64,000 nucleotides of DNA from Thermoanaerobaculia bacterium (GTDB lineage Bacteria; Acidobacteriota; Thermoanaerobaculia; Multivoradales; UBA5704). Positions 2,731-32,675 of the stretch are shown one piece after another (position 1 is the first letter of the stretch; each line of letters begins with the position of its first letter). The stretch covers positions 69,813-133,812 of the forward strand of contig JBGAGQ010000010.1 in assembly GCA_044226625.1 (NCBI GenBank), read 5' to 3'. The notes below the pieces were generated by a model. The model was given only the letters and a program-made list of their open reading frames with translations, was not told where the DNA came from and made no database searches. A program made the position numbers and the translations under genes.

Positions 2731-4197
2731 ATGCCCGATCACCCCGACGGCCGTGCCGGAGAGGATCGCACGGCGGCGCCGGTTGCGCTGGCCGGTCTGC
2801 TCGGCGCCGCGGCCGGCTCGGCCGGGATCTGGGCGTTCCTCTCGTTCCGGTTCCACGGCGAAAACGGCGCCGCTCCGGTCGCGATCTTTCTGTGGGCCAT
2901 CCTCGCCCTGTTCGTCATCCTAGGGGCCGGTTTCGCCTCCGCCCGCCGCCTCGCGGCGGAGCGACCGCAGCTCGCGCTCGTCCTGATTCTCGGCACCGCG
3001 GCGCTCTTCCGGCTGCTGCTCCTTCCGGCGGGGCTCGCCGCTTCCCGGGGCGCGGCGGCCGACGACCTCGCCGGTCGCGCGGTGGGCTTCGAGCGCTTCC
3101 TGCTCTACGACCAGGACGTCTGGCGCTACCTTTGGGACGGCCATCTGGTCGCCCGGGGAATCGATCCCTACGGTCGGACGCCGGAGGAGTGGGAACGGCT
3201 CACCGAAGCGGGAGACCCGCGGGCCGAGGCGATCCTCGAAGAGCCCCCGTGGCTCGACGCGTTCGACATGATCGCGTTTCGCGGCCATCGATCCGTCTAT
3301 CCTCCGCTCGCGCAGGCGGCGTTCGGCCTGTCCGCGCTCGTGGCGCCTGGCAGCGTCCTCGTCTGGAAGCTCCTGCTGCTGGTCGTCGACCTCGGCACCT
3401 GCGGGCTGCTCGCGGCGCTGCTCGCCCGGTTGGGGCGCGGCCGGTGGGAGGTGATCCTCTACGCTTGGAATCCGCTCGTTTTGAAAGAGGTCGCCGGCTC
3501 CGGGCACGTCGACGCCCTCGCGGCGCTCGGCCTCGCCGGAGCGGCGCTCGCGCTGGTCGCGGCGGACCGTTCATCCCACCCGAAAGAGCGCCGACGGGGC
3601 GAATCGCTCACGCTGGCTGCCTTGGCTTTCGCGGGCCTCGCCAAGCTCACCCCGCTCGTCGCCGCCCCGGCGTTCCTCGCGCGGATCCCGCGGCGGAGGG
3701 GGTGGATTCTCCCGGCGGCTCTGGCGGTGGGTTCCCTGCCTTTTGCGGCCGGCCTTCCGGATCTCCTCCACGGTCTCTCGGCGATGGCCGCCGAATGGCG
3801 ATTCCAAGCCGGTGGGTGGGATCTCTTCGCGGCGCTCGGCGAGTGGATCGTGCCGGGCGCGGGCCGTGGCGTCGCGACGGCGTTTGCGCTGCTCGCGACG
3901 CTCGCCCTTGGCGTCTGGATCCTTCGCGATCGGAGCGCCCTCGGAGCACTGCGGGCCGCGTACGCGATGCTGCTCGCGTTCCTCCTGCTCGGTCCGGCGG
4001 TGATGCCCTGGTACGCGGTGGGCCTCCTGCCGCTCGCGGTCGCCGTCCGCGGCCGGGCGGGGCTCGCCTTCTCGGCGCTGGGGTTCCTCTCCTACCTGGT
4101 CTACGTCGACGGGACGGAAGGGATCGCCGCGCGGGCTTTCGTCCACGCGGCGACCTGGGCGCTGCTCGCGATCGATCTCAGGCGAATCGAGGGTTGA
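2731..4197 (+). CDS. Polytopic membrane glycosyltransferase (GT-C, GT87/DUF2029-like)
   Basis: DVWRYLWDG, GIDPY, SVYPP, YAWNPL, GHVD, PWY motifs with many TM helices. Confidence 0.75.
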   Translation: MPDHPDGRAGEDRTAAPVALAGLLGAAAGSAGIWAFLSFRFHGENGAAPVAIFLWAILALFVILGAGFASARRLAAERPQLALVLILGTAALFRLLLLPAGLAASRGAAADDLAGRAVGFERFLLYDQDVWRYLWDGHLVARGIDPYGRTPEEWERLTEAGDPRAEAILEEPPWLDAFDMIAFRGHRSVYPPLAQAAFGLSALVAPGSVLVWKLLLLVVDLGTCGLLAALLARLGRGRWEVILYAWNPLVLKEVAGSGHVDALAALGLAGAALALVAADRSSHPKERRRGESLTLAALAFAGLAKLTPLVAAPAFLARIPRRRGWILPAALAVGSLPFAAGLPDLLHGLSAMAAEWRFQAGGWDLFAALGEWIVPGAGRGVATAFALLATLALGVWILRDRSALGALRAAYAMLLAFLLLGPAVMPWYAVGLLPLAVAVRGRAGLAFSALGFLSYLVYVDGTEGIAARAFVHAATWALLAIDLRRIEG

Positions 4198-4370
4198 TCT
4201 CAGATCGTCGGCGGCGGTGGGGTGCGGCCTCCGGGTGCCTGCCCGCCGCCGGGTTGATCTCAGATCGTCGGCGGCGGTGGGGTGCGGCCTCCGGGTGCCT
4301 GCCCGCCGCCGGGTTGATCTCAGATCGTCGGCGGCGGTGGAGTGCGGCCGCCGGGTGCCTGCCCGCCGCC
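4191..4370. repeat. Tandem repeat, 3 x 60 bp, internally palindromic (REP/BIME-like)
   Basis: GGGTTGATCTCAGATCGTCGGCGGCGGTGG...CCCGCCGCC at 4191, 4251 and 4311 (third copy has two substitutions). Confidence 0.9.
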
Positions 4371-4607
4371 GTCGATGGGGCCTCCGGCCGCTTCGTTGCC
4401 GCGGCGGGCTTGGAAGGAGGGCCTGGGGGCCTTCGGGGTCTTGCCGATCGGGAAGGATTTCGGACAGGAGGGACGCGCGGGGAAAGCTTGCAGGTTTTCC
4501 ATCGATAAGTCTCCTTGATCGGCGTTCGGGGCGCGGAGCCGGGGGCGTCGCGCCGGGGTGAAAACTTGCGGGATCAGTTGGGGAGATCCGATCGGAGCGC
4601 CGAAGGG

Positions 4608-9621: not shown

Positions 9622-11964
9622 ATGGAAACCCAAGTCCTCGGGGAGCGCGTCCCCAGAAACGAAGACGCCCGCCTGCTCTCCGGCCGCGCTCTGTTCATCG
9701 ACGACCTCGACCTTCCCGGCATGGCGCACGTGGCGTTCCTGCGCAGCCCGCACGCGCACGCGCGGCTCCTCTCCGTCGACACGTCCCGCGCCAAGACGCG
9801 CCCGGGGGTCTTCGCGATTTACACCGCAGAAGACCTCGGCGACTACTGGCGCCCCGGGCCGCTGCTCGTGCCGCCGCCGCCCGTTCCCGGGATGACGTTT
9901 CACGAGCGCACCCAGGTGCCGCTCGCCAAGGGCAAGGTGCGCCAGACCGGCGAGCCGATCGCCGTCGTGGTCGCCGCCTCGCGCTATCTCGCCGAGGACG
10001 CGCTCGAAGAGATCGAGGTCGAGTACGAGCCGCTCCCCGCGGTGATCGATCTCGAACGCGCGCTCGAGCCCGGCTCGGCGCTCGTCCACGAAGACGTGGG
10101 GACGAACATGGCCGCCCACGTGCCGCAGAAGAAAGGGGATTACGCGGCGGCGCGCGCCCAGGCGGACCTCGTCCTCTCGCGCCGCTTCTCCTACGACCGC
10201 GGGGCCTCGGCCGCGATCGAAAACCGCGGCGTGGTCGCCCAATGGGACGGCCGCGCCGAGCGCCTCACCGTCTGGGATACGACCCAAGCGCCGATCCCGA
10301 TCCGCAACGGTCTCGCCGCGATGCTCGGCCTGTCCGAGCACCAGGTGCGCGTGGTGGCACCGTTCATCGGCGGCGGCTTCGGGCCGAAGATCATGATGTT
10401 CTATCCGGAGGAGGTCCTGATCCCCTGGATCGCAAAGCGGCTCGAACGGCCGATCAAGTGGATCGAGGACCGCGCCGAGAATTTCCTGGCGACGACCCAG
10501 GAGCGCCTGCAGATCCACGACGCCGAGATCGCGCTCTCGAAAGACGGCCGCATCCTCGGGGTCAAGGACTCGTTCCTTCATGACACGGGCGCCTACGATC
10601 CCTACGGACTCACCGTGCCGCTCAACAGCCAGTGCACGCTGATGGGGCCGTACGACATCCCGGCCTACGACAGCGAGTTCCGCGCCGTCTTCACCAACAA
10701 GCCGATCGTCACGCCGTACCGCGGCGCCGGCCGGCAGCACGGCGTGTTCGTCATCGAGCGCCTGCTCGATCTCGCCGCGCGCGAGCTGGGGATTTCCCCG
10801 ATCGAGATCCGGCGGAAGAACTTCCTCACCCCCGACCAGTTTCCGCACGACCACGTGATCATCTATCAAGATTTCGCGCCGCTCTATTACGACAGCGGCA
10901 ACTATGCGCCGGTGCTCGACAAGGCGCTCGCGATGATCGGTTACGAAAGCTTTCGATCGGAAGAGCAGCCGCGCCTCCGCGCGGCGGGAAAGACCGCGGG
11001 GATCGGCGTCGTCGCTTACGTCGAGGGGACGGGGATCGGCCCGTTCGAAGGGTCGCGCGTCCAGGTGCAGACGAACGGCAAGGTGACCGTGGTCACCGGT
11101 GTCGGCACGCAGGGTCAAGGGCATTTCACCGTCCTCGCCCAGGTCGCGGCCGAGCAGCTGGGCGTTGCGGTCCGCGACATCGAGGTGGTAACGGGCGACA
11201 CCGACCGCTTCCACTGGGGGACCGGCACGTTCGCGAGCCGTGGCGCGGTGGTCGCGGGTAACGCCGTCCACGAGGCGGCAAAAAAGGTGCGAGAGAAGGC
11301 GATCCGCCTCGCGGCCGAGAAACTCGGCGTCGAGGAGGCCGAGATCGAGCTCGCCGAAGGCAAGGTGCGCGTCGTCGCCGACCCGGGGCACTCGATGCCT
11401 CTTTCCGAGCTCGCCTCGCTCGCGAACCCCATGCGCGGAGCGGTCAAGCCCGGCGCCGAGCCGGGCCTCGAGGCGACCGCCTATTTCGGACCCTACCGCG
11501 GAGCCACCGCGAGCGGCGTCCACGCGATGATCGTCGAGGTCGATCCCGAGACGATGCAGATCGAGGTGAAGAAATACGTCGTGGTCCACGACTGCGGCCG
11601 CGTGATCAATCCGCTCCTGGTCGACGGCCAAGTCCACGGCGGCGTGGCGCAGGGGATCGGCAACGCCTGGTACGAGCAGCTCGTCTTCGACGACAACGGC
11701 CAGCTCACCAACGCTTCGTTCATGGACTTTCTTCTTCCGACCGCCCTCGACGTCCCGCGCGTCGACGTCGGCCACGAGGAGACCGTCTCCCCCCTAAACG
11801 CCCTCGGCACGAAAGGCGCGGGAGAAGCAGGAACCATCCCCGTCGGCGCCCTCTTCGCCCAAGCTCTCGAAGACGCCCTCGCCATCCCCGGCCTCGAGAT
11901 CAACGAGATCCCGTTGAAGCCGAGCCGGTTGTGGGAGCTGGCGGAGGGTGTGAAGGGGAAGTGA
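9622..11964 (+). CDS. Xanthine dehydrogenase family molybdopterin-binding large subunit (CoxL/CutL form II-like)
   Basis: RSPHAHA, GGGFGPK, PYRGAGR active-site loop, GQGHFT, HDCG...INP...GQVHGG, KGAGEAG. Confidence 0.92.
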   Translation: METQVLGERVPRNEDARLLSGRALFIDDLDLPGMAHVAFLRSPHAHARLLSVDTSRAKTRPGVFAIYTAEDLGDYWRPGPLLVPPPPVPGMTFHERTQVPLAKGKVRQTGEPIAVVVAASRYLAEDALEEIEVEYEPLPAVIDLERALEPGSALVHEDVGTNMAAHVPQKKGDYAAARAQADLVLSRRFSYDRGASAAIENRGVVAQWDGRAERLTVWDTTQAPIPIRNGLAAMLGLSEHQVRVVAPFIGGGFGPKIMMFYPEEVLIPWIAKRLERPIKWIEDRAENFLATTQERLQIHDAEIALSKDGRILGVKDSFLHDTGAYDPYGLTVPLNSQCTLMGPYDIPAYDSEFRAVFTNKPIVTPYRGAGRQHGVFVIERLLDLAARELGISPIEIRRKNFLTPDQFPHDHVIIYQDFAPLYYDSGNYAPVLDKALAMIGYESFRSEEQPRLRAAGKTAGIGVVAYVEGTGIGPFEGSRVQVQTNGKVTVVTGVGTQGQGHFTVLAQVAAEQLGVAVRDIEVVTGDTDRFHWGTGTFASRGAVVAGNAVHEAAKKVREKAIRLAAEKLGVEEAEIELAEGKVRVVADPGHSMPLSELASLANPMRGAVKPGAEPGLEATAYFGPYRGATASGVHAMIVEVDPETMQIEVKKYVVVHDCGRVINPLLVDGQVHGGVAQGIGNAWYEQLVFDDNGQLTNASFMDFLLPTALDVPRVDVGHEETVSPLNALGTKGAGEAGTIPVGALFAQALEDALAIPGLEINEIPLKPSRLWELAEGVKGK

Positions 11965-12024
11965 GCCGCCAAACGAGTTCGGCCGGAGGAGGTTTTCGGC
12001 AAGCGCGCTAGAATCGCCGACGCA

Positions 12025-12264
12025 ATGTTCGATCCGCAAAAGGCTTTCGAAACCCATCGCGGCGAGGTCGCTCGCCTCGTCGACAGCTATCGCACGCGAT
12101 GTCTCTGGTTTCTGCGAGAGGATTTCTACCCGACCAACGCCGAGGAGGCCGTCCGCGTCCTCTCGCAAATCGAGCGCAACGCCGACCTCGAAGGGTTCCG
12201 GCGCGCGGCCCGGCTTCGCTCATGGCTCTCACCGACTTCCAGCGCACCGTCTGCCGCCTCTTAG
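12025..12264 (+). CDS. Small protein, putative antitoxin of the adjacent nucleotidyltransferase
   Basis: 79 aa, RCLWFLRED motif, overlaps the downstream gene; TAGAAT 10 nt upstream. Confidence 0.6.
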   Translation: MFDPQKAFETHRGEVARLVDSYRTRCLWFLREDFYPTNAEEAVRVLSQIERNADLEGFRRAARLRSWLSPTSSAPSAAS

Positions 12265-13034
12265 CGGCCCATCGCGTGGCGTCCGGGGAGAGCTACGTCG
12301 CGGGCGGGGTGGCGCTCAACGAATGGCTCGGCGCACCGCGGCTGTCGCGCGACGTGGACCTTTTCCACGATACGGAGAGCGCCGTCGAACGGAGCTGGAA
12401 CGAAGACCGTGCGCTCCTCGTCGAGTCGGGCTTCGCGGTCCTCCCAGTGCGGGAGCGTCCAGGGTTCGTCGAGGCGGAGGTCCAAAGGGGCGGCGCTTCG
12501 TTGCACCTCGAATGGGTACGCGACAGCAGTTTCCGCTTCTTCCCCCTCGTCGAGCATGCTGAGCTCGGCCTCACCCTCCACCCCTTCGACCTCGCGACGA
12601 ACAAGCTGCTCGCCCTGGTCGGGCGTCGCGAAGTCCGCGACTGGATCGACGTCCTCGAATGCCATGCGCGCTTGCAACATCTCGGCTACCTCGCTTGGGC
12701 CGCCTGTGGCAAAGACCCCGGCTTCTCTCCGACGACACTCATCGAACACTCGGCGCGCGGCGGAAGGTTCACGGCGCCGGAGGTGGCAAGCCTCGCCTTC
12801 GTAGGGTCCGCTCCCGATCTCGGCTCCTTCTCCCGAGCGTGGCACGCGGCGATCGAAGAGGCCCGTCAACTGGTCGCCGTCCTGCCCGCGGCGGAAGCGG
12901 GAAACTGCGTCCTCGACGCCGAGGGGAAGCTTCTACGCGTCGGGCCCGTCGGCCTCCCGGCGGCCATCTCTCGTGGAGAGGTTCGATTCCACGCCGGTAG
13001 CATCCGGGGGGCTTTTCCGACGCTGATGGCGTAA
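12222..13034 (+). CDS. AbiEii-like nucleotidyltransferase (type IV TA toxin-like)
   Basis: AGGVAL...RLSRDVDLF catalytic signature; NKLLALVGR...RDWID. Confidence 0.75.
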   Translation: MALTDFQRTVCRLLAAHRVASGESYVAGGVALNEWLGAPRLSRDVDLFHDTESAVERSWNEDRALLVESGFAVLPVRERPGFVEAEVQRGGASLHLEWVRDSSFRFFPLVEHAELGLTLHPFDLATNKLLALVGRREVRDWIDVLECHARLQHLGYLAWAACGKDPGFSPTTLIEHSARGGRFTAPEVASLAFVGSAPDLGSFSRAWHAAIEEARQLVAVLPAAEAGNCVLDAEGKLLRVGPVGLPAAISRGEVRFHAGSIRGAFPTLMA

Positions 13035-13192
13035 GACGACGACGTTGCGAACCTGGATCCCTGGGGCCGCTGACAGCTCGCCGGCGCTTCTGTCGAGCGA
13101 GGACCCAGCGAAACGTCTGCCGCCTCGTAGCGGCCGAAAAGGGCGCACCAAACACGCCTAAAGTGCGCTCAACCTTGAGCCTCTCGAAACAC

Positions 13193-13219
13193 GGCTGGCG
13201 CCTTCCGGCGCCAGCCTTT
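13193..13219. terminator. GC hairpin, probable (bidirectional) terminator
   Basis: GGCTGGCGCC-TTCC-GGCGCCAGCC perfect 10-bp stem followed by TTT on +. Confidence 0.65.
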
Positions 13220-13274
13220 GCTTCTACACCATGGAACACACTGTTTCAATCCGCGCCCCTCCGAGAGAGGCGGC
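13193..13274 (-). ncRNA. Putative crRNA-like RNA (solitary repeat, 26-nt guide, hairpin)
   Basis: 13274-13243 reads GCCGCCTCTCTCGGAGGGGCGCGGATTGAAAC, 23/32 identical to the array repeat with the stem and GGATTGAAAC end kept; guide AGTGTGTTCCATGGTGTAGAAGCAAA follows. Confidence 0.75.
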
Positions 13275-13277
13275 CAG

Positions 13278-13332
13278 TTCAGTGTATACCACGGTCTAGG
13301 GGGTTGACTTTAGCTTTGGAGACGCCGAAAAT
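13278..13332 (+). promoter_or_regulatory. TTC-PAM target of the crRNA-like guide next to a predicted sigma70 promoter
   Basis: TTC (13278-80), then AGTGTATACCACGGTCTAG matching the guide 15/19; TTGACT-N17-GAAAAT at 13304-13332. Confidence 0.6.
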
Positions 13333-13460
13333 AAATCGGCCCCGGAGGAGGACGAGTCCTCTAGGGCCGCGGAGATTCAACCGGGCCGAGGTAGGCACCA
13401 GCTGAAATCGCACAGTAGCAGTGTACCTGCCGAGGTCCTTCCAATTCAAGGAGGAGCGCG

Positions 13461-13634
13461 GTGAAAAGGCCCGACTGGGTCGTCCGGCTGCTGGTGGAGT
13501 TGCTCCGTCCTCAACTTCCCCGAAGCTGGACATTCACCCTTGGGCTCCGACGGGCGGACCGTCGGAGCCCAGGTTCTCGCGTAAACGACCTGATGCGAAA
13601 TCAAATTCAACGGAATCATCCAGCCCTGGGTTGA
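13461..13634 (+). CDS. Unannotated 57-aa mini-ORF ahead of cas3
   Basis: AAGGAGG at 13448-54, GTG AAA AGG start, TGA abutting the cas3 ATG at 13635; internal 13-bp hairpin 13541-13571. Confidence 0.4.
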   Translation: MKRPDWVVRLLVELLRPQLPRSWTFTLGLRRADRRSPGSRVNDLMRNQIQRNHPALG

Positions 13635-15824
13635 ATGCTCGTAATGCGGCCAGGCAAGTTCTACTCCCATACCCTCCTCGGTCGCCCTCAATCGGAGTGG
13701 GAGCGACTCGAAGAGCACCTGGTTCAGGTAGCCGAGAAGGCGTCCGAGTTTGCCTCGGTATTTGGAGCCTCCGAATGGGGCCATCTTGCGGGGCTGTGGC
13801 ACGACCTGGGGAAATACCGGAGATCCTTCCAGGAGTACCTCGATCGGACGGGAGCGGTCGGATTCGAGGCGACCCAAGAGCAAGCTGCGGGCCGAGTCGA
13901 TCACTCGACGGCGGGGGCGCAGGTCGCCGTCGAGCGGCTCGGTCCCTTCGGGAAGGTACTCGCCTACGTGATCGCCGGGCATCACGCGGGCTTGCCGGAC
14001 GGGCTCGGCGGACAGAGCTCCTTAGAAGCGAGACTTGCAAAAGCCGAGGTGATGGCCGACCTCGATCTGGCCGCGATACCGGGGGCGATCCTGAACGCTT
14101 CATGCCCCGGGAGCCGGCCACCTTCCCGAAATGCCGAGGAAGCGCACCTTTGGGTGCGATTCCTGTTCTCCGCGCTCGTCGACGCGGATTCCTTGGCGAC
14201 CGAAGCGTTCGTCGATCCGGAAAAGTCGCGCCTCCGTTCAACTCATCCCGAACCCGGACCGCTCTTAGAGGTTCTCGAACGACATCTTTCGGCGAAGTTC
14301 GGTGAGCCACGGACGGAAGTTCAACGCATCCGTCGCGAGATTCTCAGAGCATGTATCGAAAACGCGCAGCTATCGCCGGGCGTCTTTTCGCTTACGGTTC
14401 CCACGGGGGGAGGAAAGACCCTCTCGTCGCTCGCGTTCGCTCTTCGCCACGCAAGCCTGCACGGCCAGCGGCGAGTGATCTACGCGATTCCCTACACCAG
14501 CATCATCGAACAGACGGCCACGACCTTCCGCGAGATTTTCGGGGAGTGGGTCTTGGAGCACCATAGCAATCTGGATCCGGAGGACTCCTCGCGCGAGACC
14601 CTTCGGGGCACGTTGGCCGCAGAGAACTGGGACGCGCCGATCGTCGTCACCACCAACGTCCAGTTGTTCGAGTCCGTGTTTTCGGCGCGCAGGACCCGTT
14701 GCCGAAAGCTCCACCGCCTGGTCCGATCGGTGATCGTCCTCGACGAGGCCCAGCTCCTTCCTCCGGAGTTCCTCAAACCGATCCTTCACGTCCTTCGCGG
14801 TCTGGTGCGCGACTACGGCGCCTCGGTAGTCATCTCGACCGCGACCCGGCCGGCGCTCGATCTCGGTGAAATTCGGGAGCTGGCATCCGATCCGGCGGAT
14901 CTCGACCGACGACTCCGGCGGGTGCGCTACGAGTGGCCGAAATCGCGCGAACCGAGAACCTGGGACGAGATCGCCGACCGTCTGACGGCTCACTCGAGCG
15001 TCCTCTGCGTCGTCAACCGCCGCGACGACGCCCGGCAGTTGGTGGGCTTGTTGCCGGAGGACACGGTACATCTCTCGGCGCTGATGTGCGGAGCGCATCG
15101 CTCGGAGAAAATCGCCGAAATCAAACGGTGTTTGGCGGAACGCAGGCCTGTTCGGGTCGTCAGCACCCAGCTGGTCGAGGCCGGGGTCGATCTCGATTTT
15201 CCGGTGGTCTATCGCGCATTCGCCGGGCTGGACTCGATCGCGCAGGCCGCCGGACGCTGTAACCGCGAAGGTCGGCTGGATGGCCCTGGCCGAGTGGTTG
15301 TGTTTCACCCTCCCAAGGGCTCGCCACCCGGATTGCTCCGCAAGGCGGAGGACACCGCCGCGGAGTTGATCGGCGACCGCGCGCCGGAGTTCCTGGAGCC
15401 GGACCTGTTCACCCGCTATTTCGACCTCCTGTACCGAACCAAGGTCGACGATCTCGACAAGCACGGAATCTTGGACCTGTTGGGCAAGAACGCCCGTGCG
15501 CTCGACGTCCAGTTTCGCGAGGCGGGCGAGCGATTCCGACTGATCGAGGAATCGGGTTACCGGCCGGTCTTGGTCGCCTGGCGCGACGGCGCCGGTCTCC
15601 TCCGCGAATTTCGACGCCGAGAACCCGATCGGAGTCTGTTTCGGCGCGCACAGCGCTACGTCGTCACGTTGCCGCCGTGGCAGCTCGGAGCGCTCGAAAA
15701 GGCCGGGGCAGTTCGTGAGATCGCTCCCGGCTTCTTCGGTCAAGAACATTCGCTCCTGTACGACGAGAAGCTGGGGCTGCTTACGACCGTGCCCGAGTTT
15801 CGAGCTGAAGACCTGGTCGTATGA
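13635..15824 (+). CDS. cas3: Type I-C Cas3 HD nuclease-helicase
   Basis: HDLGK HD motif, PTGGGKT, DEAQ, TQLVEAGVD, QAAGRCNR; start 13635 or 13644. Confidence 0.97.
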   Translation: MLVMRPGKFYSHTLLGRPQSEWERLEEHLVQVAEKASEFASVFGASEWGHLAGLWHDLGKYRRSFQEYLDRTGAVGFEATQEQAAGRVDHSTAGAQVAVERLGPFGKVLAYVIAGHHAGLPDGLGGQSSLEARLAKAEVMADLDLAAIPGAILNASCPGSRPPSRNAEEAHLWVRFLFSALVDADSLATEAFVDPEKSRLRSTHPEPGPLLEVLERHLSAKFGEPRTEVQRIRREILRACIENAQLSPGVFSLTVPTGGGKTLSSLAFALRHASLHGQRRVIYAIPYTSIIEQTATTFREIFGEWVLEHHSNLDPEDSSRETLRGTLAAENWDAPIVVTTNVQLFESVFSARRTRCRKLHRLVRSVIVLDEAQLLPPEFLKPILHVLRGLVRDYGASVVISTATRPALDLGEIRELASDPADLDRRLRRVRYEWPKSREPRTWDEIADRLTAHSSVLCVVNRRDDARQLVGLLPEDTVHLSALMCGAHRSEKIAEIKRCLAERRPVRVVSTQLVEAGVDLDFPVVYRAFAGLDSIAQAAGRCNREGRLDGPGRVVVFHPPKGSPPGLLRKAEDTAAELIGDRAPEFLEPDLFTRYFDLLYRTKVDDLDKHGILDLLGKNARALDVQFREAGERFRLIEESGYRPVLVAWRDGAGLLREFRRREPDRSLFRRAQRYVVTLPPWQLGALEKAGAVREIAPGFFGQEHSLLYDEKLGLLTTVPEFRAEDLVV

Positions 15825-15857
15825 ACCGAGTGTCCGAACCAAGAAAGGACGGTGCGA

Positions 15858-16523
15858 ATGCCTCTGCATTGTCTCGAAGTCTGGGGTGACTTCGCCTGCT
15901 TTACCCGACCGGAGATGAAGGTGGAGCGCGTTAGCTATGACGTGATGACGCCCTCCGCCGCGCGTGCGATCTTCGAGGCGATCCTCTGGCGGCCCGCGAT
16001 CCGGTGGCGCATCCATCGCATCGACGTGCTGCAGCCGATCCGCTGGCTTTCGTTTCGCCGCAACGAAGTCGGCGCCGTCGTGCCCGTCGGGAGCGTCAAG
16101 AGCGCGATGAAATCAGGGACCGGGTGCCTGGCCCTGAACGTCGAGGACGAACGACAGCAACGGGCTGGTCTCCTGCTGCGCGACGTGCGGTACCGGATCT
16201 CCGCCTCGTTCTCCATGACCGGCAAGGCGGGGCCTGCGGAGACTGAAGGGAAGTTCGCCGAGATGTTTCGGCGCCGGGCTCGGAAGGGGCAGACCTTCAA
16301 CCAGCCCTACCTAGGGTGCCGCGAGTTCGCCTGCGGTTTTCGTTACGTCGAGGATCCGACCCGTGAACGCCCGCCCATTGAGGAGAGCCGACACCTCGGT
16401 TTGATGCTCTACGACCTCGATTTCTCCGACCCCGCCGAACCCAATCCCGCGTTCTTCGACGCCCGTTTGGGGCGCGGGACTCTGGAAGTCCCCGACTGGG
16501 AAAGCGCCGAGGTGCTGAGGTGA
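15858..16523 (+). CDS. cas5c: Type I-C Cas5 (Cas5c/Cas5d)
   Basis: WGDFACFTRPEMKVERVSYDVMTPSAARAIFEAILW, PYLGCREF. Confidence 0.97.
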   Translation: MPLHCLEVWGDFACFTRPEMKVERVSYDVMTPSAARAIFEAILWRPAIRWRIHRIDVLQPIRWLSFRRNEVGAVVPVGSVKSAMKSGTGCLALNVEDERQQRAGLLLRDVRYRISASFSMTGKAGPAETEGKFAEMFRRRARKGQTFNQPYLGCREFACGFRYVEDPTRERPPIEESRHLGLMLYDLDFSDPAEPNPAFFDARLGRGTLEVPDWESAEVLR

Positions 16524-18217
16524 TCCTGCAGGCGCTCTGCGACTATTACAGGCGGAAATCGTCGGACGACGAGGCCGAGGTTGCCCCACCAGGTTTTGAG
16601 CACAAGGAAATCCCCTTCGTTCTCGTGCTCGACCGAGAGGGGCGCCTGGTGCAAATCGACGACCTCCGGTCGCCCGACGGCAAAAGGGCCAAGAGACAAC
16701 TGGTCCCCCAGGCGGTCAAACGCACGGTTGGCGTGTCGGCGAATCTCCTGTGGGACAGCCTCGAATACGCCCTCGGTTACGACTCGCGGGGCCGGGCGGA
16801 GAGGGTGGCCCGGCAGCACGCCGATTTCCGGCAACGAATCGATCGGCTTCCCGGCGATGACGAGGCGCTTGCCGCGGTCAAGATTTTCCTGGCGGGCGAC
16901 CCTCTGGAAGAGACTCGGCGTGCGTCCCTGTGGCCCGAGCTCGCCGAGGGGAACCCCCTGGTGACCTTTCGACTCGCCGACGATCCCGAGCTCGTGTCGC
17001 AGCGGTCCGCCGTTCGAGGGCTGCTCACCGGCGGTGAGCCCCGCGAGGTCGAGGCCCGTTGCTCGATCACCGGTCGGCTCGACGCGATTTCGCGGCTTCA
17101 TCCTTCGATCAAGGGTGTTCGAGACGCCCAACCGACCGGCGCGAGCCTGGTTTCCTACAACGAGCCCGCTTTCCGTTCCTTCAACAAGGACCAGGGCGCG
17201 AACGCTCCCGTGGGTGAGGAGGCCGTGTTCGCTTACACGACCGCCTTGAATCACCTCTTGCGGCCGGGCTCGTCCCAACGAATCCAGCTGGGCGACGCGA
17301 CGACCGTTTTCTGGTCCGAGAAGGCGAGCGGCGGCCTCGTCGAGCGGGCCTTCACGTCCTGGTTCGACCCCCCGCGTGACGATCCGGACGCCAACGTCGA
17401 GAGCGTTCGCGCTCTCTACGAGTTTCAGCGCGGGCGACCCTTGACCGACGATGATCAGCAGCGCTTTTTCGTGCTTGGCTTGGCGCCGAACGCCGCGCGC
17501 CTGGCCGTTCGCTTTTGGCAGGTAGCGACCATTGCCGACTTGGGGCAGCGGATCTTCGAACATTTTTCCGCGCTCGAGATCGTCCTGCCTCCCAAGAGCC
17601 CTCGGTATCCCTCTCTTCCGCAACTACTCGCTTCGATCGCGGTCCAGGGCAAGCTCAAGAACGTTCCTCCTGGGCTTGCGGGCGATTGGCTCCGCTCGAT
17701 CCTGTCCGGCTCGCCGTACCCGCACACTTTGCTCGAAGCGGCGATCCGCCGTTGCCGTGCCGAACAGGCCGTGACCCCCTCCCGCGCCGCGCTGATCAAG
17801 GCATCACTCATTCGATCGTCCCACCAACGAAAGGAGAATCTCGCCGTGTCGCTCGACCTGAGCAATGTGAATCCCGGGTACCGGCTCGGGCGGTTGTTCG
17901 CCGTGTTCGAAAAGCTCCAGGAGGACGCTCAGCCAGGAATCAACGCGACGATCCGCGACCGCTACTTTGCCTCGGCTTCCAGCAATCCGCTGGTTGCGTT
18001 TTCGACCCTCAATCGATTGAAGAACCACCACCTGGCGAAACTCTCGAATCGGGGTCTCGCGGTCGTCCGCGAAAAACTGATCGGCGAGATCATGTCCGGA
18101 ATCGATGCCAAGGATCCCTTTCCCGCGCGGTTGTCGCTCGCGGACCAGGGCCGCTTCGCCGTCGGCTACTACCACCAACGCCAAGCATTTTTCGAGAAGC
18201 AAGGAGGCAACGACTAA
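16520..18217 (+). CDS. cas8c: Type I-C Cas8c/Csd1
   Basis: [41 protein letters not shown]. Confidence 0.97.
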
Positions 18218-19104
18218 TGGCCCTCGAACACCGTTATGACTTCGTTCTACTTTTCGACGTTCAAGACGGCAACCCCAACGGCGACCCGGATGCCGGAAAC
18301 CTTCCGCGGATCGATCCCGAGACCGGCGAGGGTTTGGTGACCGATGTCTGCCTGAAGCGCAAGGTGCGCAACTTCGTCGGCTTGGTCAAGGGCGAGCAGC
18401 CTCCGTTCGAGATCTACGTCAAGGAGAAGGCGGTTCTCAACCAACAGCACGAACGGGCCTACGTGGCGATCGGGAAACAAGACCTCCTCAAGAAGGCCGA
18501 CGAGAAGGACAAGAAGAGAAAGGGCGGCGACGCCGTGGACGAGGCTCGCGCCTGGATGTGCAAGAACTTTTACGACGTACGCACCTTCGGGGCGGTCATG
18601 TCCACCGGTACCAATTGCGGCCAAGTCCGCGGCCCGATCCAGATCACTTTCGGCCGTTCGGTCGCGCCGGTCGTGTCGCTCGAGCACTCGATTACCCGGA
18701 TGGCGGTCACCACCGAGAAGGAAGCCGAAGAACAGGCGGGTGACAACCGGACCATGGGCCGTAAGTTCACCGTTCCTTACGGTCTCTACCGTACTCACGG
18801 TTTCGTCTCGGCGCACCTGGCCGACCAGACGGGATTTTCGCCCGAGGATCTCGACCTTTTCTGGCAAGCGTTGACCCAGATGTTCGAGCACGATCGGTCG
18901 GCCGCTCGCGGTCAGATGGCGACCCGCAGGCTCTATGTGTTCGAGCACGCTTCGAAGCTCGGCAACGCGCCCGCCCACGCCCTGTTCGACCGCGTCTCGG
19001 TCGGATTGAGAGAGTCGGGGCGGCCGGCTCGGAGCTTCGAGGATTTCGAGGTCCGGATCGATCGCGAAGGACTGCCGGAGGGAGTGACGCTGCGCGAGAT
19101 GTAA
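18217..19104 (+). CDS. cas7c: Type I-C Cas7/Csd2
   Basis: [43 protein letters not shown]; AAGGAGG RBS and TAATG overlap. Confidence 0.97.
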
Positions 19105-19109
19105 CCGCC

Positions 19110-19839
19110 ATGTTCTCCGAAGACGACCTCCTCCCGCTCTCCGCCCTGGCAGCACTACGTGTTCTGCCCGCGGCAAAGCGCGTTGATCCACGTCGAAGGG
19201 ATCTGGCGGGACAACGTGCTCACGGTGACCGGGACGCAGCTGCATGAGCGGCTGGACGAGGCCGGAGGCGAGGCGCGGGGCGATCTCCTGGTCGCCCGCG
19301 CGCTGCCGCTTCGGAGTCTGCGGCACGGTCTCGCCGGCCGGGCGGACGCGGTGGAGCTGCATCGGCTGCCCGAGGGGGAGAGCGGAGGCGTGGCGCTTCC
19401 CGGCCGGACCGGCCGGTGGCGGCCGTTTCCGGTCGAAACCAAGCGCGGTAAACCCAAATCGCACGACGCCGACCGGGTCCAGCTCTGCGGTCAGGCGCTC
19501 TGTCTCGAAGAGATGCTCGGCACGGACGTTCCCGCGGGGGCGCTGTTCTACGGCATGCCGCGGCGTCGGGAGGAGGTCGCGTTCGACCCCCGTTTGCGCG
19601 AGGCGACCCTGACCGCGGCGCGCGCCGCACGCGAAATGATCGCTTCGGGAACGACGCCCCGGGCGGTGCGGGAGCCGAAATGCGATCGCTGCTCCCTCCT
19701 CGACCGCTGCCTTCCCAACCTCCTCGGCCGCTCTGCGAGCGGCTTTCTGGAAACCGCTCTCCGAGCGGAAAGTCAAGAAGCCGCGCTTCGAGCCGAGGGC
19801 ATCGCCGCCGCGGTACCGCGGGAAGGGGAGGGTCCATGA
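19110..19839 (+). CDS. cas4: Cas4 (apparent +1 frameshift near 19149)
   Basis: MFSEDDLLPLSAL in one frame, QHYVFCPRQ...PVETKRG...QLCGQALCLEEM...CDRCSLLDRC in the next; one extra G in CTGGCAG. Confidence 0.92.
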
Positions 19840-20940
19840 AACGCCTCGGCAACACGCTCTACGTCACCACGCCGGGCGCCTATCTGAGCAAGGACGGTGA
19901 GGCGGTCGCCGTGCGAGTCGAGGAGGAGGTACGGCTGCGGATCCCGATCCACCTGCTCGACGGCGTCGTCTGCCTGGGCGCGACCGGCGCGAGCCCGTAT
20001 CTCCTCGGCTTCTGCGGCGAGCGGGGGGTGGCGGTGTCGTTCTTGACCGAGCAGGGGCGGTTCCTCGCGCGGGTCGAAGGGCCGGTTTCGGGCAATGTCC
20101 TCCTGCGTCGGGCGCAGTACCGCGCGGCCGACGAGCCGGGGCCGGCGTGCGGCATCGTGCGCGGGATCGTCGCGGCGAAGATCGCCAATTCGCGCGCGGT
20201 GCTCCGCCGGGCGCTGCGCGACCGACCCGAGGCCGCTGGGAGCGAGGCGCTCGAATCGGCGGTTGTACGGATCGGAGCGCTGATTCCCGCTCTTGTCGGA
20301 GCGCCCTCGATCGACGTCCTGCGCGGTCTCGAGGGCCAGGCGGCGCGGATCTACTTCGAAGTCTTCGACGCCCTGATCGTTCAACAGCGCGAGGCCTTCG
20401 CCTTTCGCGGTCGAAGTCGCCGGCCGCCGCTGGATCCAATCAACGCCCTCCTCTCGTTCCTCTACGCCCTGCTCCGCCACGACACCGAGGCCGCGCTCGA
20501 AGGGGTGGGGCTCGATCCGGCGGTCGGCTTCCTCCATCGCGACCGCCCAAGCGGCCTCGGCGATCTGCAATCCGATTCCGCTCGATCCGGCGGTCGGCTT
20601 CCTCCATCGCGACCGCCCCGGCCGCCCTGGGCTCGCGCTCGATCTGATGGAGGAGCTGCGCGCCTTCCTCTGCGACCGGCTCGCTCTTTCCCTGATCAAC
20701 CTGCGTCAGGTTCGGCCGGAGGGGTTCACCGTTCGCGAGACGGGCGGCGTCGAGATGGACGAGGCGACGCGCAAGGAGGTCCTCGTCGCCTACCAGAAGC
20801 GCAAGCAGGAAGAGCTGCTCCACCCGTTCCTGCGCGAAAAGGCGCCGGCCGGCCTGCTGCCGCACCTTCAGGCCGCTCTCCTTTCCCGCCATCTGCGCGG
20901 CGACCTCGACGCCTACCCGCCGTTTTTCTGGAAAGGCTGA
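19836..20940 (+). CDS. cas1: Type I-C Cas1 (interrupted by a 70-bp insertion/duplication)
   Basis: NTLYVTT, SGNVLLRRAQY, RGLEG, RRPPLDPINALLSFLY, then LALDLMEELR...YPPFFWK in another frame; removing 70 bp gives 344 aa. Confidence 0.93.
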
Positions 20941-20952
20941 GAAGGGGGCGCC

Positions 20953-21243
20953 GTGCTCGTCCTGATCAGCTACGACGTCGCGACGACCACCCGCGAGGGG
21001 AGGCGCCGGTTGCGTCGGGTCGCCAAGACCTGTCTCGACTTCGGCCAGCGGGTGCAGAAATCCGTCTTCGAGTGCCTGGTCGACCCGACCCAGTGGGCGA
21101 TCTTTCGCAACCGTCTGCTCGCCGAGATCGAGCCCGGTGAGGACAGCCTGCGGATCTACTTTCTCGGCAAGAACTGGCGCGGTCACGTCGAGCACCACGG
21201 CGCGAAGCCCAGCCTCGACCCGGAAGGGCCGCTCGTCGCCTGA
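20953..21243 (+). CDS. cas2: Cas2
   Basis: LISYDV...RRLRRVAKTC..FGQRVQKSVFEC...DSLRIY. Confidence 0.97.
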   Translation: MLVLISYDVATTTREGRRRLRRVAKTCLDFGQRVQKSVFECLVDPTQWAIFRNRLLAEIEPGEDSLRIYFLGKNWRGHVEHHGAKPSLDPEGPLVA

Positions 21244-21729
21244 AGTGCAGGGCCGCCAACGGCCGGAAAGCTCGTCGGTTGTGCGTTGTTCTCCTGGCGA
21301 TGTGCGAGATCGTGTAGCCAGACCCCATTCGGAGGCGTCTGGAGGAGCTCCGCGACTCCGCTCTGTGCGGAGCTGGGAGAGATTGGCACAGAGCCGAGAG
21401 AGAAAAGGACATTCCGCGGATCGTCTTGTGCGGTACTTGGTCTGGTCTGTGCGAGTTCCTGGGTGAAATCCGCTTTTTCAGACCACCCCGTCCGTAATCC
21501 CTTGGAGAGATCCGCTTTCCGCTCACGGCGCTGCACAAAGTTGCGTCGACTTTGTGCGGGGTCACGGCCGTGAGGAGTTCTCGCGCTCAAGAATGGCGAA
21601 TTTTGAAACGCCACCGCACAGACATCTCTCGGATTCGCACAGAGCTTCCTCTCCGCTCGGCCTTGGGTGATAGGATCTGCACAAAGGCAGACCTCCTTTG
21701 CACAATTCGCGGTCGGAAAAGAGGTTCCG

Positions 21730-21930
21730 ATGGCCACCAATGTCGAGCTGGACGAAGAGTTGGTCGATCGCGCCCTCCGGGCGACGGGCATTCGCACCAA
21801 GCGAGACCTGATTCACGCGGGTCTTCGCACGTTGGTGCGGCTGCATGAGCAGCGCGAGGTCCGCGACCTCCGCGGCCGGCTTCGCTGGGAGGAGAGCGAG
21901 GGCGTTCCGAGCGAAAAAGAGAACGGCTGA
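21730..21930 (+). CDS. vapB: VapB-type antitoxin
   Basis: MATNVELDEELVDRAL...TKRDLIHAGLRTLV; TGATG coupling to a PIN gene. Confidence 0.85.
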   Translation: MATNVELDEELVDRALRATGIRTKRDLIHAGLRTLVRLHEQREVRDLRGRLRWEESEGVPSEKENG

Positions 21931-22334
21931 TGCGGGTCCTGGTCGATTCTTCGGTCTGGATCGCCTACTTCCGCGGTGACATGACGCCACGGACGGACCT
22001 TCTACACGAGTTGATCGGCTACGCCCCGCTGATCACCGCCGACCTGGTGCTCGCCGAGCTGCTTCGTGGTTTCCCCTCCGATGCCGAGCTGGAGCAGGTC
22101 CGCGCCGCGCTCGCGCTCTTTCCCCGCTACGAGATCGGCGGTGACGCTCTCGCCCTTGCGAGCGCTGGCCTTTCCCGGGTCCTCGCCGCCAAGCGAGCCA
22201 AGGTACCGCCGCTCGCCCAACGTCTGATCGCCACCTGGTGCATCCAGAAGAATGTGGCCCTCCTGCACGCCGATCCGAGCTACGAACCGTTCGAGCGCCA
22301 CCTTGGCTTGAAGGTTCCCGACCCGGGGCTTTGA
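21930..22334 (+). CDS. vapC: VapC PIN-domain toxin
   Basis: VLVDSSVWI, ELLRG, LIATWC, LLHAD. Confidence 0.85.
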   Translation: MRVLVDSSVWIAYFRGDMTPRTDLLHELIGYAPLITADLVLAELLRGFPSDAELEQVRAALALFPRYEIGGDALALASAGLSRVLAAKRAKVPPLAQRLIATWCIQKNVALLHADPSYEPFERHLGLKVPDPGL

Positions 22335-22586
22335 CTCTAGCTCGGGGGTGTCCGAGAAAACGATAGTTTTTTGCGGATGGCGGCGATTTCGTCCCGGACG
22401 CCTCGCCCGACGAAAGAAAGTCTCCAGAAATCTATCGTTTTCTCTGACCTCTCTGGTGTAGGGTGTCGGCGGGGCGGCTCGCTTGCTCCGTCCTCCCGAT
22501 CCGCCGCCCGGCCGACCGGGCCTCGCGGCCCATCCAGAACCGAAGAACCCGCATCGCATCCTTTCAACCCCGGAGGATGAGCTCGT

Positions 22587-22766
22587 GCGCGAACCGGAAG
22601 CGAACATCCGCCTCCCCGAGAGGTTCGCGCGGCCTATAAGTACTTTGGCGGCAGTGCCTTCCGTCGCGGAAGCTCCTCGCCGACGGTGGAATCCCTCGGC
22701 GACACACCCTGTTTCGCGCAAACCGGGTTCTAAACAATTGAAGGCAGGGGCGTTAAACTAGCCGCC
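22587..22766 (+). promoter_or_regulatory. CRISPR leader
   Basis: GCGCGAACC/GGTTCGCGC inverted motifs (22587, 22622) and an IHF-like site (22731-22743), directly before the first repeat. Confidence 0.75.
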
Positions 22767-25700
22767 GTCGCCCTCCGCGCGAGGGCGTGGATTGAAACCG
22801 CGCGAGCGCAGCACCTCGGCGAGGTTCGCGAGCGTCGCCCTCCGCGCGAGGGCGTGGATTGAAACCCAGATGGTGAGATCGCGAGCGACGAGAACAAAGT
22901 CGCCCTCCGCGCGAGGGCGTGGATTGAAACTGGTCGATCCAGTGGGGTACGCGCGACTCCCCGTGGTCGCCCTCCGCGCGAGGGCGTGGATTGAAACGCC
23001 TTTGCCGCCGGGGGCGATGCGGTCGTCGATCGGTCGCCCTCCGCGCGAGGGCGTGGATTGAAACCAGAAAGCCCAGCAGGACGTCAAGAAGGAGGTCGAC
23101 GTCGCCCTCCGCGCGAGGGCGTGGATTGAAACCAGGAGATCCCTTTCTAGGGGAATCATCCCGCCGTCGCCCTCCGCGCGAGGGCGTGGATTGAAACTGT
23201 CCTGGCACCCGCACGCTGCGCGAGGGGTGGCCGTCGCCCTCCGCGCGAGGGCGTGGATTGAAACTCGATCTCGGACCGGATCGCGGCAACTGCCTCCTCG
23301 TCGCCCTCCGCGCGAGGGCGTGGATGCGGGATTGAAACAGTTCCGCGATCGCCTGGACGAAGGCCGGTTGTCGCCTGCGCGAGGGCGTGGATTGAAACTT
23401 GTCATGCCGCCTTGCGGATGAGCAGCCAGCGTCGCCCTCCGCGCGAGGGGCGCGTGGATTGAACGCCTTCCACGCTCGTGCGCCTCGATCACATCCGTCG
23501 CCCTCCGCGCGAGTGGGCGGACTGAAACTTGATTGCCTCATTCGCTGCCGCGCGAGGCGGCCTTGTCGCCTCCGCTGCGGCGCGAGGGCGTGATTGTACC
23601 GGCTCCCATCGAAGTCATCCCCGGAAGCAAGCGTCGCCTCCTCCGCGCGAGGGCGGATTGAAACCGATGGCCCAAATGATCATGCTCGCGCCTGGTGTCG
23701 CCCCCCCGCGCGAGGGCGGATTGAAACCCTCGTCGCCGACCCCGGAACCGACGGATCAGTCGCCCGCGCGAGGGCGTGGATTGAACCACCGCCGAGTTCG
23801 GGTTCACAGCCGCCGCGCGAGGGCGTGGATTGAACTTGTAGGAGATCCCTCAGAAGCGGAGAGGGATGCCGTCGCCTTCCGCGCGAGGGCGGATTGAAAC
23901 TCGAAGACGCCGCCGAGTGCCGAGGGTGTCGGTCGCCCTCCGCGCGAGGGCGGATTGAAACACACGGAGCGTGGCTGCTGGGACGGAGGTCGCCTTCCGC
24001 GAGGGCGTGGATTGAACCGCATGTCGTGACGTTTGCCACCACCACGGTCGCCTCCGCGCGAGGGCGTGATTGAAACCCCCGCCTCACCTCTAATCAAGAA
24101 GAAAACTGCGTCGCCTCTGCGCGAGGGCGCGGATTGAAACACCCCGGAAATGTCCCACCCTTCAACTGCGCTTTGTCGCCCTCTCGCGCGAGGGCGTGAT
24201 TGAAACGCGGGCGTTCACGATTCGGGCGCTGCCAGCCACGGTCGCCCGCGCGAGGGGCGCGGATTGAAACATCGAGCATAGACGCTGATGATCACGGCTG
24301 GCATGAGTCGCCCTCTGCGCGAGGGCGTGATTGAAACCATGACGAGGAAGTGAAGTTTGCCGGTGCGGCGGTCGCCTCCGCGCGAGGGCGTGGATTGAAA
24401 TCTCGCAGAGCGCCGCCCAATGCAGTCCACGCAGGTCGCCCTCCGCGCGAGGGCGGGGATTGAACACCCTACCTGAATAGCCCAACGCCAGCGCGTGTTG
24501 CCCTCCGCGCGAGGGCGTGGATTGAAACCAGAAGCGCCTGCGCCTGCTGGACGGCGGCGGCGATGTCGCCCCTTCGCGCGAGGGCGATTGAAACGATTAT
24601 CGACGACAGCAGTTCTGGGCCGATCTGGCCGCCCCTTCGCGCGAGGGCGATTGAACGGTAACCAGCGGCGCCTCAAGGGCAGGGCGGTCGCCTCCTGCGC
24701 GAGGGCGGATTGAAACTCCTTGGCCTCAGGCGCTGGAGCCGGAATTGTATGTCGTCGCGCGAGGGCGTGGATTGAACACGCGGATCGGAGTCGACGCGAT
24801 GAAGCAACTGGTTGCCCTCCCGCGCGAGGGCGGATTGAAACTGGTGCTGACCGGCGACGTCCGCTGCTCGCTGTCGCCTCCGCGCGAGGGCGTGGATTGA
24901 AACGTCTTGCGGCCATAGGCCACAGGTTTGGTGAAACTCGTCGCCCTCCGCGCGGAGGGCGTGGATTGAAACCCAGTCCTTGCCGATTGGTCTGGCCTAC
25001 GGCGAATGGTCGCCCTCGCGCGCGAGGGCGGATTGAAAACGATGCCGTCGTGGCAATGGCCGAACGGATCGCGGTCGCCCGCGCGAGGGCGGGATTGAAA
25101 CGCCGAGATGCGCCATGACATCCAAAAGGCACAAGTCGCCTGCGCGAGGGCGTGATTGAACCCCGATGGCCGCGATGATTTCGGGGTTGGCGTCGCCTCG
25201 CGCGAGGGCGTGTGATTGGAACCTTGAATCCTGCATCTGGGGACCATTTGACGAGTCGCCCTCCTCGGCGCGAGGGCGTGGATTGAAACCTGGGGCGCGC
25301 GAGTCCATGTGCTCGAGAGCGATCGTCGCCTCGCGCGAGGGCGGATTGAAACCGTTCCTCGGCCTGCCCAGTGAAGCATTTCCGTGGTCGCCCGCGCGAG
25401 GGCGTGATTGAAATCGACCTCGGCGCGCACCGACGGCAACCAACGGTGTCGCCCTCCGCGCGAGGGCGTGATTGAAACCGCGCTGGTGGAGCGTCTAACG
25501 GGAGAAATGTCGCCCTCCGCGCGAGGCGTGGATTGAAACCCTGGACTTCTCCCGGCCGGGCGCAGGACGCGGTGGTCGCCCCTCCGCGCGAGAGGGCGAT
25601 CGAAAACCAGCTCGCTGACGCCTTGTTACACCTTGGTTCTTCCTCGCGCGAGGGCGATCAAACGGTCGACCAGGGCGCTGCTGCTGCGTCGCCTTCGGCG

Positions 25701-31700: not shown

Positions 31701-32675
31701 AAATCCGGCGGTCCCAGACGGACGGAACGACATGTCGCCCTCCGCGCGAGGGCGTGGATTGAAACGTATGCCGAGCTACCTGCTCGCTCGGCGCTGCGAG
31801 TCGCCCTCCGCGCGAGGGCGTGGATTGAAACCCCGCGATCCGGACGCGACGTGAACCGCGTGGTCGCCCTCCGCGCGAGGGCGTGAATGTGGATTGAAAC
31901 GCGATCCTGGTGACCCAAAGTCGTCGCCCTCCGCGCGAGGGCGTGGATTGAAACGCATCCTTCGTCGATTCCAGCAATCGCACGATCACGTCGCCCTCCG
32001 CGCGAGGGCGTGGATTGAAACCCTGGTTTCGGGCGCGCCGCTCGCCAACCGCGTGGTCGCCCTCCGCGCGAGGGCGTGGATTGAAACGCTAGCCTTGCCG
32101 ATCGATTACGGGCCGCGGACGCGGTCGCCCTCCGCGCGAGGGCGTGGATTGAAACTCTCGCCCGGCCTCTGTGACCGGCGCTGATCCAGACCGTCGCCCT
32201 CCGCGCGAGGGCGTGGATTGAAACCACCTCCGAAACGGCGTCGCTGAACGCGGTCGCCCTCCGCGCGAGGGCGTGGATTGAAACGTCGATCGAGGCGTCG
32301 ATCGCGGAGCGTCGCCCTCCGCGCGAGGGCGTGGATTGAAACCCGGCCGTGAACGTCACGTTGAAAGGCATCGAAGTCGCCCTCCGCGCGAGGGCGTGGA
32401 TTGAAACTCGCCGATTCTGGTCGCGGCCACGTCGCCGCCGTCGCCCTCCGCGCGAGGGCGTGGATTGAAGGGGCGGATTGAGCGCCCCGCGGAAGGCGAA
32501 AACCGCTCGTCGCCCTCCGCGCGAGGGCGTGGATTGAAACAAGAATCCGTTGGCGAGGGATGCGGATGGAACGACATCGTCGCCCTCCGCGCGAGGGCGT
32601 GGTTGAAACTGACCCCGGCGTGCTCGTGCCGTATCGACCATTCGTCGCCCTCCGCGGGAGGGCGTGGATTGAAAC
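22767..32675 (+). CRISPR. Type I-C CRISPR array, about 150 repeats, GTCGCCCTCCGCGCGAGGGCGTGGATTGAAAC
   Basis: 32-bp repeat with a 7-bp stem, spacers about 33-37 nt; repeat count estimated from length; degenerate trailer repeat near 32710; error-rich and duplicated blocks inside. Confidence 0.99.

Follow-up and report, generated by a model that had tools for sequence, protein, structure and literature searches.

What does the DNA between a promoter, apparently targeted by a CRISPR RNA-like guide, and the cas3 gene that it serves contribute to a type I-C CRISPR-Cas locus? In a Thermoanaerobaculia bacterium this interval (positions 13337 to 13634 of the 64,000-nt stretch of DNA that was analysed, hereafter the window) holds a Shine-Dalgarno (SD) motif, a small open reading frame and a perfect hairpin. 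An earlier note on this DNA had read it either as a CreT-like RNA or peptide toxin, repressed by Cascade and making the cas locus addictive, or as a leader ORF by which the translation of cas3 is coupled or attenuated. Both readings were examined here by computation, together with the guide on which they depend.

The cas locus and its surroundings

The assembly, of an organism known from a bioreactor metagenome alone, amounts to 6.6 Mb in 133 contigs, with 67.7% G+C. Three genes around the interval were named with Pfam:

9622-11964, upstream of the cas operon: molybdopterin-enzyme (MoCoBD) gene
12099-13034, upstream of the cas operon: AbiEii-like nucleotidyltransferase gene
13635-15824, plus strand: cas3 (HD nuclease and helicase; HD, DEAD and Cas3 C-terminal domains), with which the type I-C operon begins

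Besides the Cas3 domains, Pfam recognized Cas5d, Csd1 (cas8c, E 4e-174), Cas7, Cas4 and Cas1 among the operon's products; it gave no match for cas2, which is named from its position. The CRISPR array (22767-32675) has 76 repeats with at most 3 mismatches from the consensus. Two of its parts, 24175-26474 and 27373-29737, are 87% identical over about 2.4 kb and contain many repeats with small indels; this self-similarity reflects a true duplication that has since diverged, or else an error of assembly. When the array spacers (120 spacer starts) were compared with 12000-22700, only chance-level matches of 9 to 19 nt were present among the matches listed. The contigs of run X1, the probable source of this DNA, cover the interval before cas3 and agree with 12900-14500 with 0 differences; those of runs X3-X5 do not cover 13170-13763.

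The AbiEii-like gene adjoins the enzyme gene, and no partner gene is apparent upstream of it. Among seven genomes of the same genus, two have a near full-length match to it and two a fragment only (G001, G007); the likeness to the two full-length counterparts ends near 12925, short of the gene end. A 31-nt direct repeat, 90% identical, lies once inside this gene (12239-12269) and once after it (13105-13135). Farther away in the window, a 60-nt unit occurs three times in tandem at 4191-4371, in copies that are 98% alike, and a CyVA-1 RNA motif at 35090-35169 on the minus strand scores 46.2 bits, its gathering score being 41.4. Among the 61 tRNA genes of the assembly is one for tRNA-Sec.

A crRNA-like guide directed at the cas promoter

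Divergently from cas3, the following elements were found between the AbiEii-like gene and the interval:

13193-13274, minus strand: solitary-repeat crRNA-like gene, divergent from cas3, made of repeat, spacer-like segment and hairpin
13243-13274, minus strand: degenerate CRISPR repeat, 22 of 32 positions identical to the array repeat (manual count), the last 10 nt identical
13217-13242, minus strand: 26-nt spacer-like segment of the crRNA-like RNA, matching the plus strand from 13281
13193-13216, minus strand: GC-rich hairpin of 10 bp, at which the crRNA-like RNA is predicted to have its 3' end (from folding, and from an equivalent in relatives)
13278-13304, plus strand: TTC PAM (13278-13280) with a partial protospacer, target of the crRNA-like RNA
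13304-13332, plus strand: sigma-70-like promoter (TTGACT, 17 nt, GAAAAT), from which the transcript is predicted to start near 13339, at the base of a 5' stem-loop

The degenerate repeat is the only one outside the array, and among 104 matches to the 10-nt handle end it is the single one on the minus strand. Compared with CRISPR-DR9 it scores 17.6 bits, below the threshold, and its repeat hairpin is kept. The locus therefore has what is expected of a CreR gene, a repeat-like sequence outside the array that retains the 5' handle, and it also has a PAM-flanked partial spacer match at a cas promoter. The spacer-like segment matches the target from 13281 at 9 of 10 seed positions and at 15 of the 20 positions counted, with mismatches that include positions 6 and 12. 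In the whole 6.6-Mb genome, 13281 is the sole site that combines TTC with at least 9 of 10 seed matches; one of 500 shuffles of the neighbourhood reached the score of the target, and none did so with TTC. The target runs into the -35 box of the promoter at 13304; no other promoter-like site was seen in 12900-13900, where shuffles lead one to expect 0.1. The view of the earlier note that the promoter upstream is the guide's target thus appears well founded, on a match that is PAM-flanked, partial and unique in the genome. Since the promoter is targeted in this way, its transcript is plausibly repressed by Cascade.

On the minus strand a TG-extended -10-like box, seen by eye at about 13285-13293, falls within the guide target. 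Because of this position, the guide may also repress its own promoter. The hairpin at 13193-13216, read on the plus strand, is also a terminator-like site after the AbiEii-like gene, and an unrelated contig of 8.7 kb in run X1 has it as well (window 13190-13220), save for one difference. The hairpin at 13541, inside the interval, was considered together with 13601-13611 as a second, decayed crRNA-like gene; no PAM-flanked target was found for it, and the idea was dropped.

Elements of this kind have precedents. In the accessible part of one report, solitary repeat units of type I-C systems give rise to crRNA-like RNAs that have an 11-nt 5' handle, a hairpin at the 3' end and a TTC PAM (10.1101/2024.12.27.630466), and, in the sections available of two others, creA-like elements, type I-C included, target cas promoters and are often toxin-less (10.1101/2023.03.10.532045; PMC10120712).

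The guide in relatives

In 300 genomes of the order, Cas3 found a match in 54, the window's own genome included, and the best relatives were 50-52% identical. Four further loci in genome contigs and one in metagenome contigs were no closer. Among 33 Cas3-homologue loci, four (L025, L026, L034 and L036), all from the family of the window, have on the opposite strand a hairpin, about 26-28 nt and a handle, 74-103 nt before cas3. In all four, a site flanked by TTC or TTT matches the seed at 9-10 of 10 positions, as counted without a shuffle control; it starts at most 15 nt from the first cas3 codon and covers a -10-like box. Just past the guide, L025, L026 and L034 also have small divergent genes that by eye resemble toxin-antitoxin pairs.

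In these relatives the guide thus hits the core promoter of cas3 directly, without a long leader, and for this reason the guide of the window looks like CreR-type self-repression of the cas genes rather than like the antitoxin of a CreTA module. From the guide handle to cas3 the distance is 392 nt in the window, versus 74-103 nt in the four relatives, and the extra 300 nt or so are the leader in question. No long leader or obvious SD was seen before cas3 in the relatives, and none of the 33 loci has a small SD-led ORF that abuts cas3. In two of the 33, an upstream gene of full size runs beyond the projected first codon of cas3 by 1-6 nt before it ends, which indicates that coupling of cas3 to an upstream frame occurs in the group.

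Anatomy of the leader

Checking the sequence, folding it and reading its frames recovered every element that the earlier note had described between promoter and cas3:

13337-13369, plus strand: 5' stem-loop of the predicted transcript (-22.3 kcal/mol, z -2.7; 2 of 200 shuffles as good)
13448-13454, plus strand: AAGGAGG, SD-like motif, 6 nt ahead of the GTG at 13461
13461-13634, plus strand: upstream ORF (uORF) of 57 sense codons, starting with GTG, then AAA and AGG, and ending with TGA at 13632-13634
13541-13571, plus strand: perfect hairpin of 13 bp around a 5-nt loop, within codons 27-37 of the ORF and not followed by a U-tract

From the predicted transcription start, we infer that 13337-13634 is the 5' leader, about 296 nt long, of the mRNA of the cas3-led type I-C operon. 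The TGA abuts, in frame, the cas3 ATG at 13635, and no SD-like motif is present in the 30 nt that precede this ATG. An alternative ATG at 13644 would give Cas3 an N-terminus of a length nearer to that of its relatives; if cas3 starts there, the uORF stop lies 9 nt upstream and does not abut. Within the same operon, the cas7 ATG at 18217 is preceded by the same AAGGAGG heptamer.

The 13-bp hairpin lengthens to 15 pairs at 13539-13573 (-33.1 kcal/mol, z -5.6; 0 of 200 shuffles as good). It is the main reason why the whole leader folds better than shuffled sequences (z -4.6, 0 of 100), the share of the 5' stem-loop being smaller. For the SD core GGAGGA, pairing with UCCUUC at 13436-13441 is predicted, and its probability of being unpaired is 0.3. 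A search with Rfam over 13000-13800 gave nothing at threshold.

How far the leader departs from chance

The 6.6-Mb genome has no more than 86 perfect hairpins of 13 bp or longer, and about 0.004 are expected per 298 nt. Given this rarity and the shuffles, the 13-bp hairpin is clearly non-random. A T-rich tail follows 58 of 189 long perfect hairpins in this genome.

The AAGGAGG motif is present at 1016 sites on both strands of the genome, 15 of them in the window, so that about 0.02 are expected per 298 nt of one strand. A start codon lies 4-10 nt downstream at only 234 of these sites, and an ORF of at least 100 residues follows 149 of them, as compared with 8-11% when six scrambled motifs are taken instead. 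The genome makes weak use of SDs, and AAGGAGG is a weak predictor of gene starts. The arrangement of an SD with a small ORF whose stop falls where a long coding ORF begins was not enriched for AAGGAGG, with 5 loci for 1016 sites; four scrambled motifs used as controls gave 4-16 loci per 1248-2375 sites. For the SD together with its ORF, the departure from chance is suggestive only.

The upstream frame does not look coding

Codon usage of the uORF looks non-coding. Its GC3 is 0.586, versus 0.75-0.80 for the cas genes and 0.89 for the enzyme gene nearby. On a CAI-like index it scores 0.334; of the 43 in-frame cas segments, two score as low or lower, as do 1% of 1200 segments taken from long genomic ORFs, and the value stands at the 30th percentile of stop-free out-of-frame segments. 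None of the other frames of the leader is coding-like.

The peptide belongs to no family in Pfam. A six-frame search of the 300 genomes gave a best E of 6e-4, away from any cas3; a weak match that recurred is to a 97-residue frame, which at the one locus read lies antisense to a long conserved gene that, from its sequence, we take to be purL-like. Among 5.8 billion proteins, of which lengths of 31-100 were considered, the peptide shared no words with any. The conservation search that the earlier note had called for thus came back empty for the SD and the 13-bp hairpin in related genomes, plasmids and phages, and for the peptide in related genomes and among proteins of 31-100 residues.

Two other explanations of the frame were tried and rejected. 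As a remnant of an upstream gene, it gave noise only against the genes that precede cas3 in relatives. Read-through of its TGA as selenocysteine into cas3 was considered, tRNA-Sec being present in the assembly, but no stable hairpin follows the TGA (13575-13660, z +0.65) and no Cas3 relative has the N-terminal extension.

Origin of the leader

No match to the leader DNA was found in 61 related genomes, then in the 300 of the order, except for the 39-nt 5' hairpin, nor in plasmid and phage collections. In this exception, 13338-13376 is 87% identical to a hairpin of genome G056 (L003, 1501-1537), 18 nt after the stop codon of an orthologous MoCoBD gene, whose own identity is 75% across 1449 nt. 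In G056 Cas3 found no match, and comparison of its downstream flank with the window gave noise only.

In three genomes of the same genus the same MoCoBD gene has, no more than about 2 kb away, a cas3 of only about 43% identity, and in two of the three an AbiEii gene or fragment lies between them. In both genomes that were read, the DNA between this gene or fragment and cas3 differs. Such differing DNA before cas3 at a shared site points to a variable defence island. The leader itself looks like a lineage-specific junction or recombination mosaic, and not like a conserved RNA or protein gene.

What the leader may do

The reading that we favour, tentatively and at somewhat below an even chance, is that the SD-led uORF hands ribosomes to the SD-less cas3 start by termination-reinitiation; both its translation and the coupling are deduced from the anatomy. 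Guide-loaded Cascade would occupy 13281-13306 and block the promoter at its -35 region. With Cascade scarce or busy, the operon mRNA would be made with its long leader, and ribosomes would load at AAGGAGG/GUG, translate the 57 codons, melting the 13-bp hairpin, terminate at the UGA at 13632-13634 and re-initiate at the adjacent, SD-less cas3 AUG. Translation of cas3, and possibly protection of the leader from premature termination, would then depend on the uORF. A leader ORF that couples or attenuates, the second proposal of the earlier note, fits this anatomy of a strong SD, a TGA that abuts an ATG and a cas3 without SD. A strong SD 6 nt from a GUG should load ribosomes, selected or not; these would stop at a UGA beside the SD-less cas3 AUG, and it is for this reason that coupling is preferred. 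A uORF stop that abuts the start of a main gene devoid of ribosome binding site is what coupling calls for, and a uORF kept in relatives, which coupling would also lead one to expect, was found at 0 of the 33 Cas3-homologue loci. This lack of conservation counts against coupling, as do the non-coding codon usage, the lack of genome-wide enrichment and the mostly paired SD core. A helix between 13372-13386 and 13623-13640, predicted to bury the cas3 AUG (pair probabilities 0.83-0.95), was discarded: equally good pairing arises in 190 of 1000 shuffles and in 25 of 57 other stretches of sequence, so it is not better than chance and was dropped as evidence.

Nearly as likely as coupling, and to be taken seriously although we would not bet on it, is an inert leader, a mosaic left by rearrangements of the defence island, in which ORF, SD-like motif and hairpins are unselected and cas3 is translated independently of an SD, CreR-type control remaining in place. 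Much of the above agrees with it: the leader is unique to this genome, its codon usage looks non-coding, the SD-uORF-gene arrangement is not enriched genome-wide, and the cas3 genes of relatives do without a long leader or obvious SD. So does the comparison of loci, in which other cas3 genes (about 43%) stand near the same MoCoBD gene with different DNA in between, and in which 13338-13376 resembles the 3' flank of that gene in G056, a genome with no Cas3 match. An inert leader sits less well with a perfect 13-bp hairpin of which the 6.6-Mb genome has at most 86, and with 57 open codons that end exactly at the cas3 ATG, improbable by a rough estimate; moreover, a strong, well-spaced SD on a transcribed RNA is expected to load ribosomes anyway. 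The same very stable and rare hairpin could instead make the leader an attenuator, which would stop or pause most transcripts before cas3, translation of the uORF setting the read-through and keeping Cas3 low. Lying within a translated frame, the hairpin would be melted by ribosomes, and, as far as the available text of the report goes, translated uORFs shape premature termination in another high-GC bacterium (10.1101/2022.06.01.494293). Yet the hairpin lacks a U-tract, whereas 58 of the 189 long perfect hairpins have a T-rich tail, no alternative, anti-terminator pairing better than chance was found, and the leader is not conserved; attenuation is therefore unlikely in our view.

A toxin, the first proposal of the earlier note, would be either an RNA from about 13339 to the hairpin at 13541-13571, dependent on translation for its toxicity, or a toxic 57-residue peptide, silenced by the guide and making Cascade addictive. 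We regard it as very improbable. The strong SD, the GUG start, the GC-rich downstream hairpin and the guide-targeted promoter do recall CreT. According to the portions seen of the descriptions of CreT RNAs, a strong SD and an AUG or GUG open an ORF of 4-6 codons in which two rare or proline codons in a row come directly after the start, a stable hairpin follows, and the consecutive pair of special codons is essential in the characterised cases (PMC8501985; 10.64898/2026.06.02.729485). In the leader the strong SD and the start are there, but the ORF has 57 codons in place of 4-6, and no two consecutive rare (AGA, AUA) or proline codons follow its start. As for the stable hairpin, a very stable one is present, 80 nt after the start and within the ORF. 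Codons 2 and 3 are AAA, which makes up 20% of Lys codons in the genome, and AGG. The count of AGG usage that the earlier note had asked for upheld the rarity of this codon (3.5 per 1000; 3.6% of Arg codons), but not a scarcity of its tRNA: the assembly has two genes for tRNA-Arg(CCU) and one for tRNA-Arg(UCU), although, with 5.5% contamination, one copy may be foreign. A longer ORF that opens with rare codons might also work, to judge from the part of the discussion of PMC8501985 that was available, and a protein toxin under CreA control, the 103-residue CreP, exists according to what could be consulted of its report (10.1101/2024.01.05.574328). Against this, neither leader nor peptide is conserved, relatives share the guide without such an element, and termination at a hairpin without a U-tract is doubtful; because no promoter-like site lies between hairpin and cas3, the same transcript must also feed cas3. 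The toxin reading is thus not supported, the length of the ORF, its AAA-AGG, the tRNAs and the missing conservation all speaking against it, and the mini-ORF, real as a sequence, bears no sign of being a toxin.

A CreR/CreTA module fused into one transcript was given an equally slight chance. In it, one guide-controlled promoter would make a composite RNA whose first 235 nt, with SD, GUG, early AGG and stable hairpin, would serve as a translation-dependent toxin like CreT or as a ribosome trap, cas3 and Cascade being encoded in the rest. Were Cascade lost or inhibited, growth arrest and a burst of cas expression would set in together. No such fusion is described in the parts that we could compare of the CreTA and creA-like literature.

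Significance

The solid result is, on the sequence evidence, a further type I-C case of a solitary-repeat guide RNA that would repress cas, present in several uncultured relatives. It is useful for cataloguing and was to be expected given recent work. The leader is at present a single-genome oddity without conservation, and it matters only if the uORF gates cas3 translation or is toxic. If either were true, a translational layer would be added to the RNA-guided autoregulation of cas genes.

Comparison with known systems

Translational coupling by termination-reinitiation at overlapping or abutting stop and start codons is an established principle. Bacterial regulatory uORFs with translational coupling are described, in the text accessible to us, in PMC13285730 and PMC8092293. 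With such uORFs the leader shares a ribosome binding site of its own, a stop that abuts the main start and a main gene without SD. It differs from them in that it is not conserved and has no better-than-chance structure at the cas3 start. A keyword search of the literature, not exhaustive, found no uORF before cas3.

The CreT RNAs of H. hispanica, H. hubeiense and P. aeruginosa resemble the leader in their strong SD, start codon, GC-rich downstream hairpin and guide-targeted promoter. CreT is a separate small RNA, whereas the element described here is joined to the cas3 mRNA; it has 57 codons, no codon pair, a hairpin within the ORF and no relatives that we could find.

The guide itself resembles CreR and other regulatory crRNA-like RNAs, from mini-arrays or solitary repeat units, that repress cas promoters. 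The target lies here about 350 nt before cas3, with the long leader between them, whereas the guide sites of the four relatives, and of published cases as far as the available texts describe them, adjoin the cas promoter; the spacer-like segment ahead of the 3' hairpin is also only 26 nt long. The resemblance extends to a degenerate repeat outside the array, a divergent orientation and a PAM-flanked partial match at a cas promoter, including, in what is accessible of the CreR descriptions, mismatches at positions 6 and 12.
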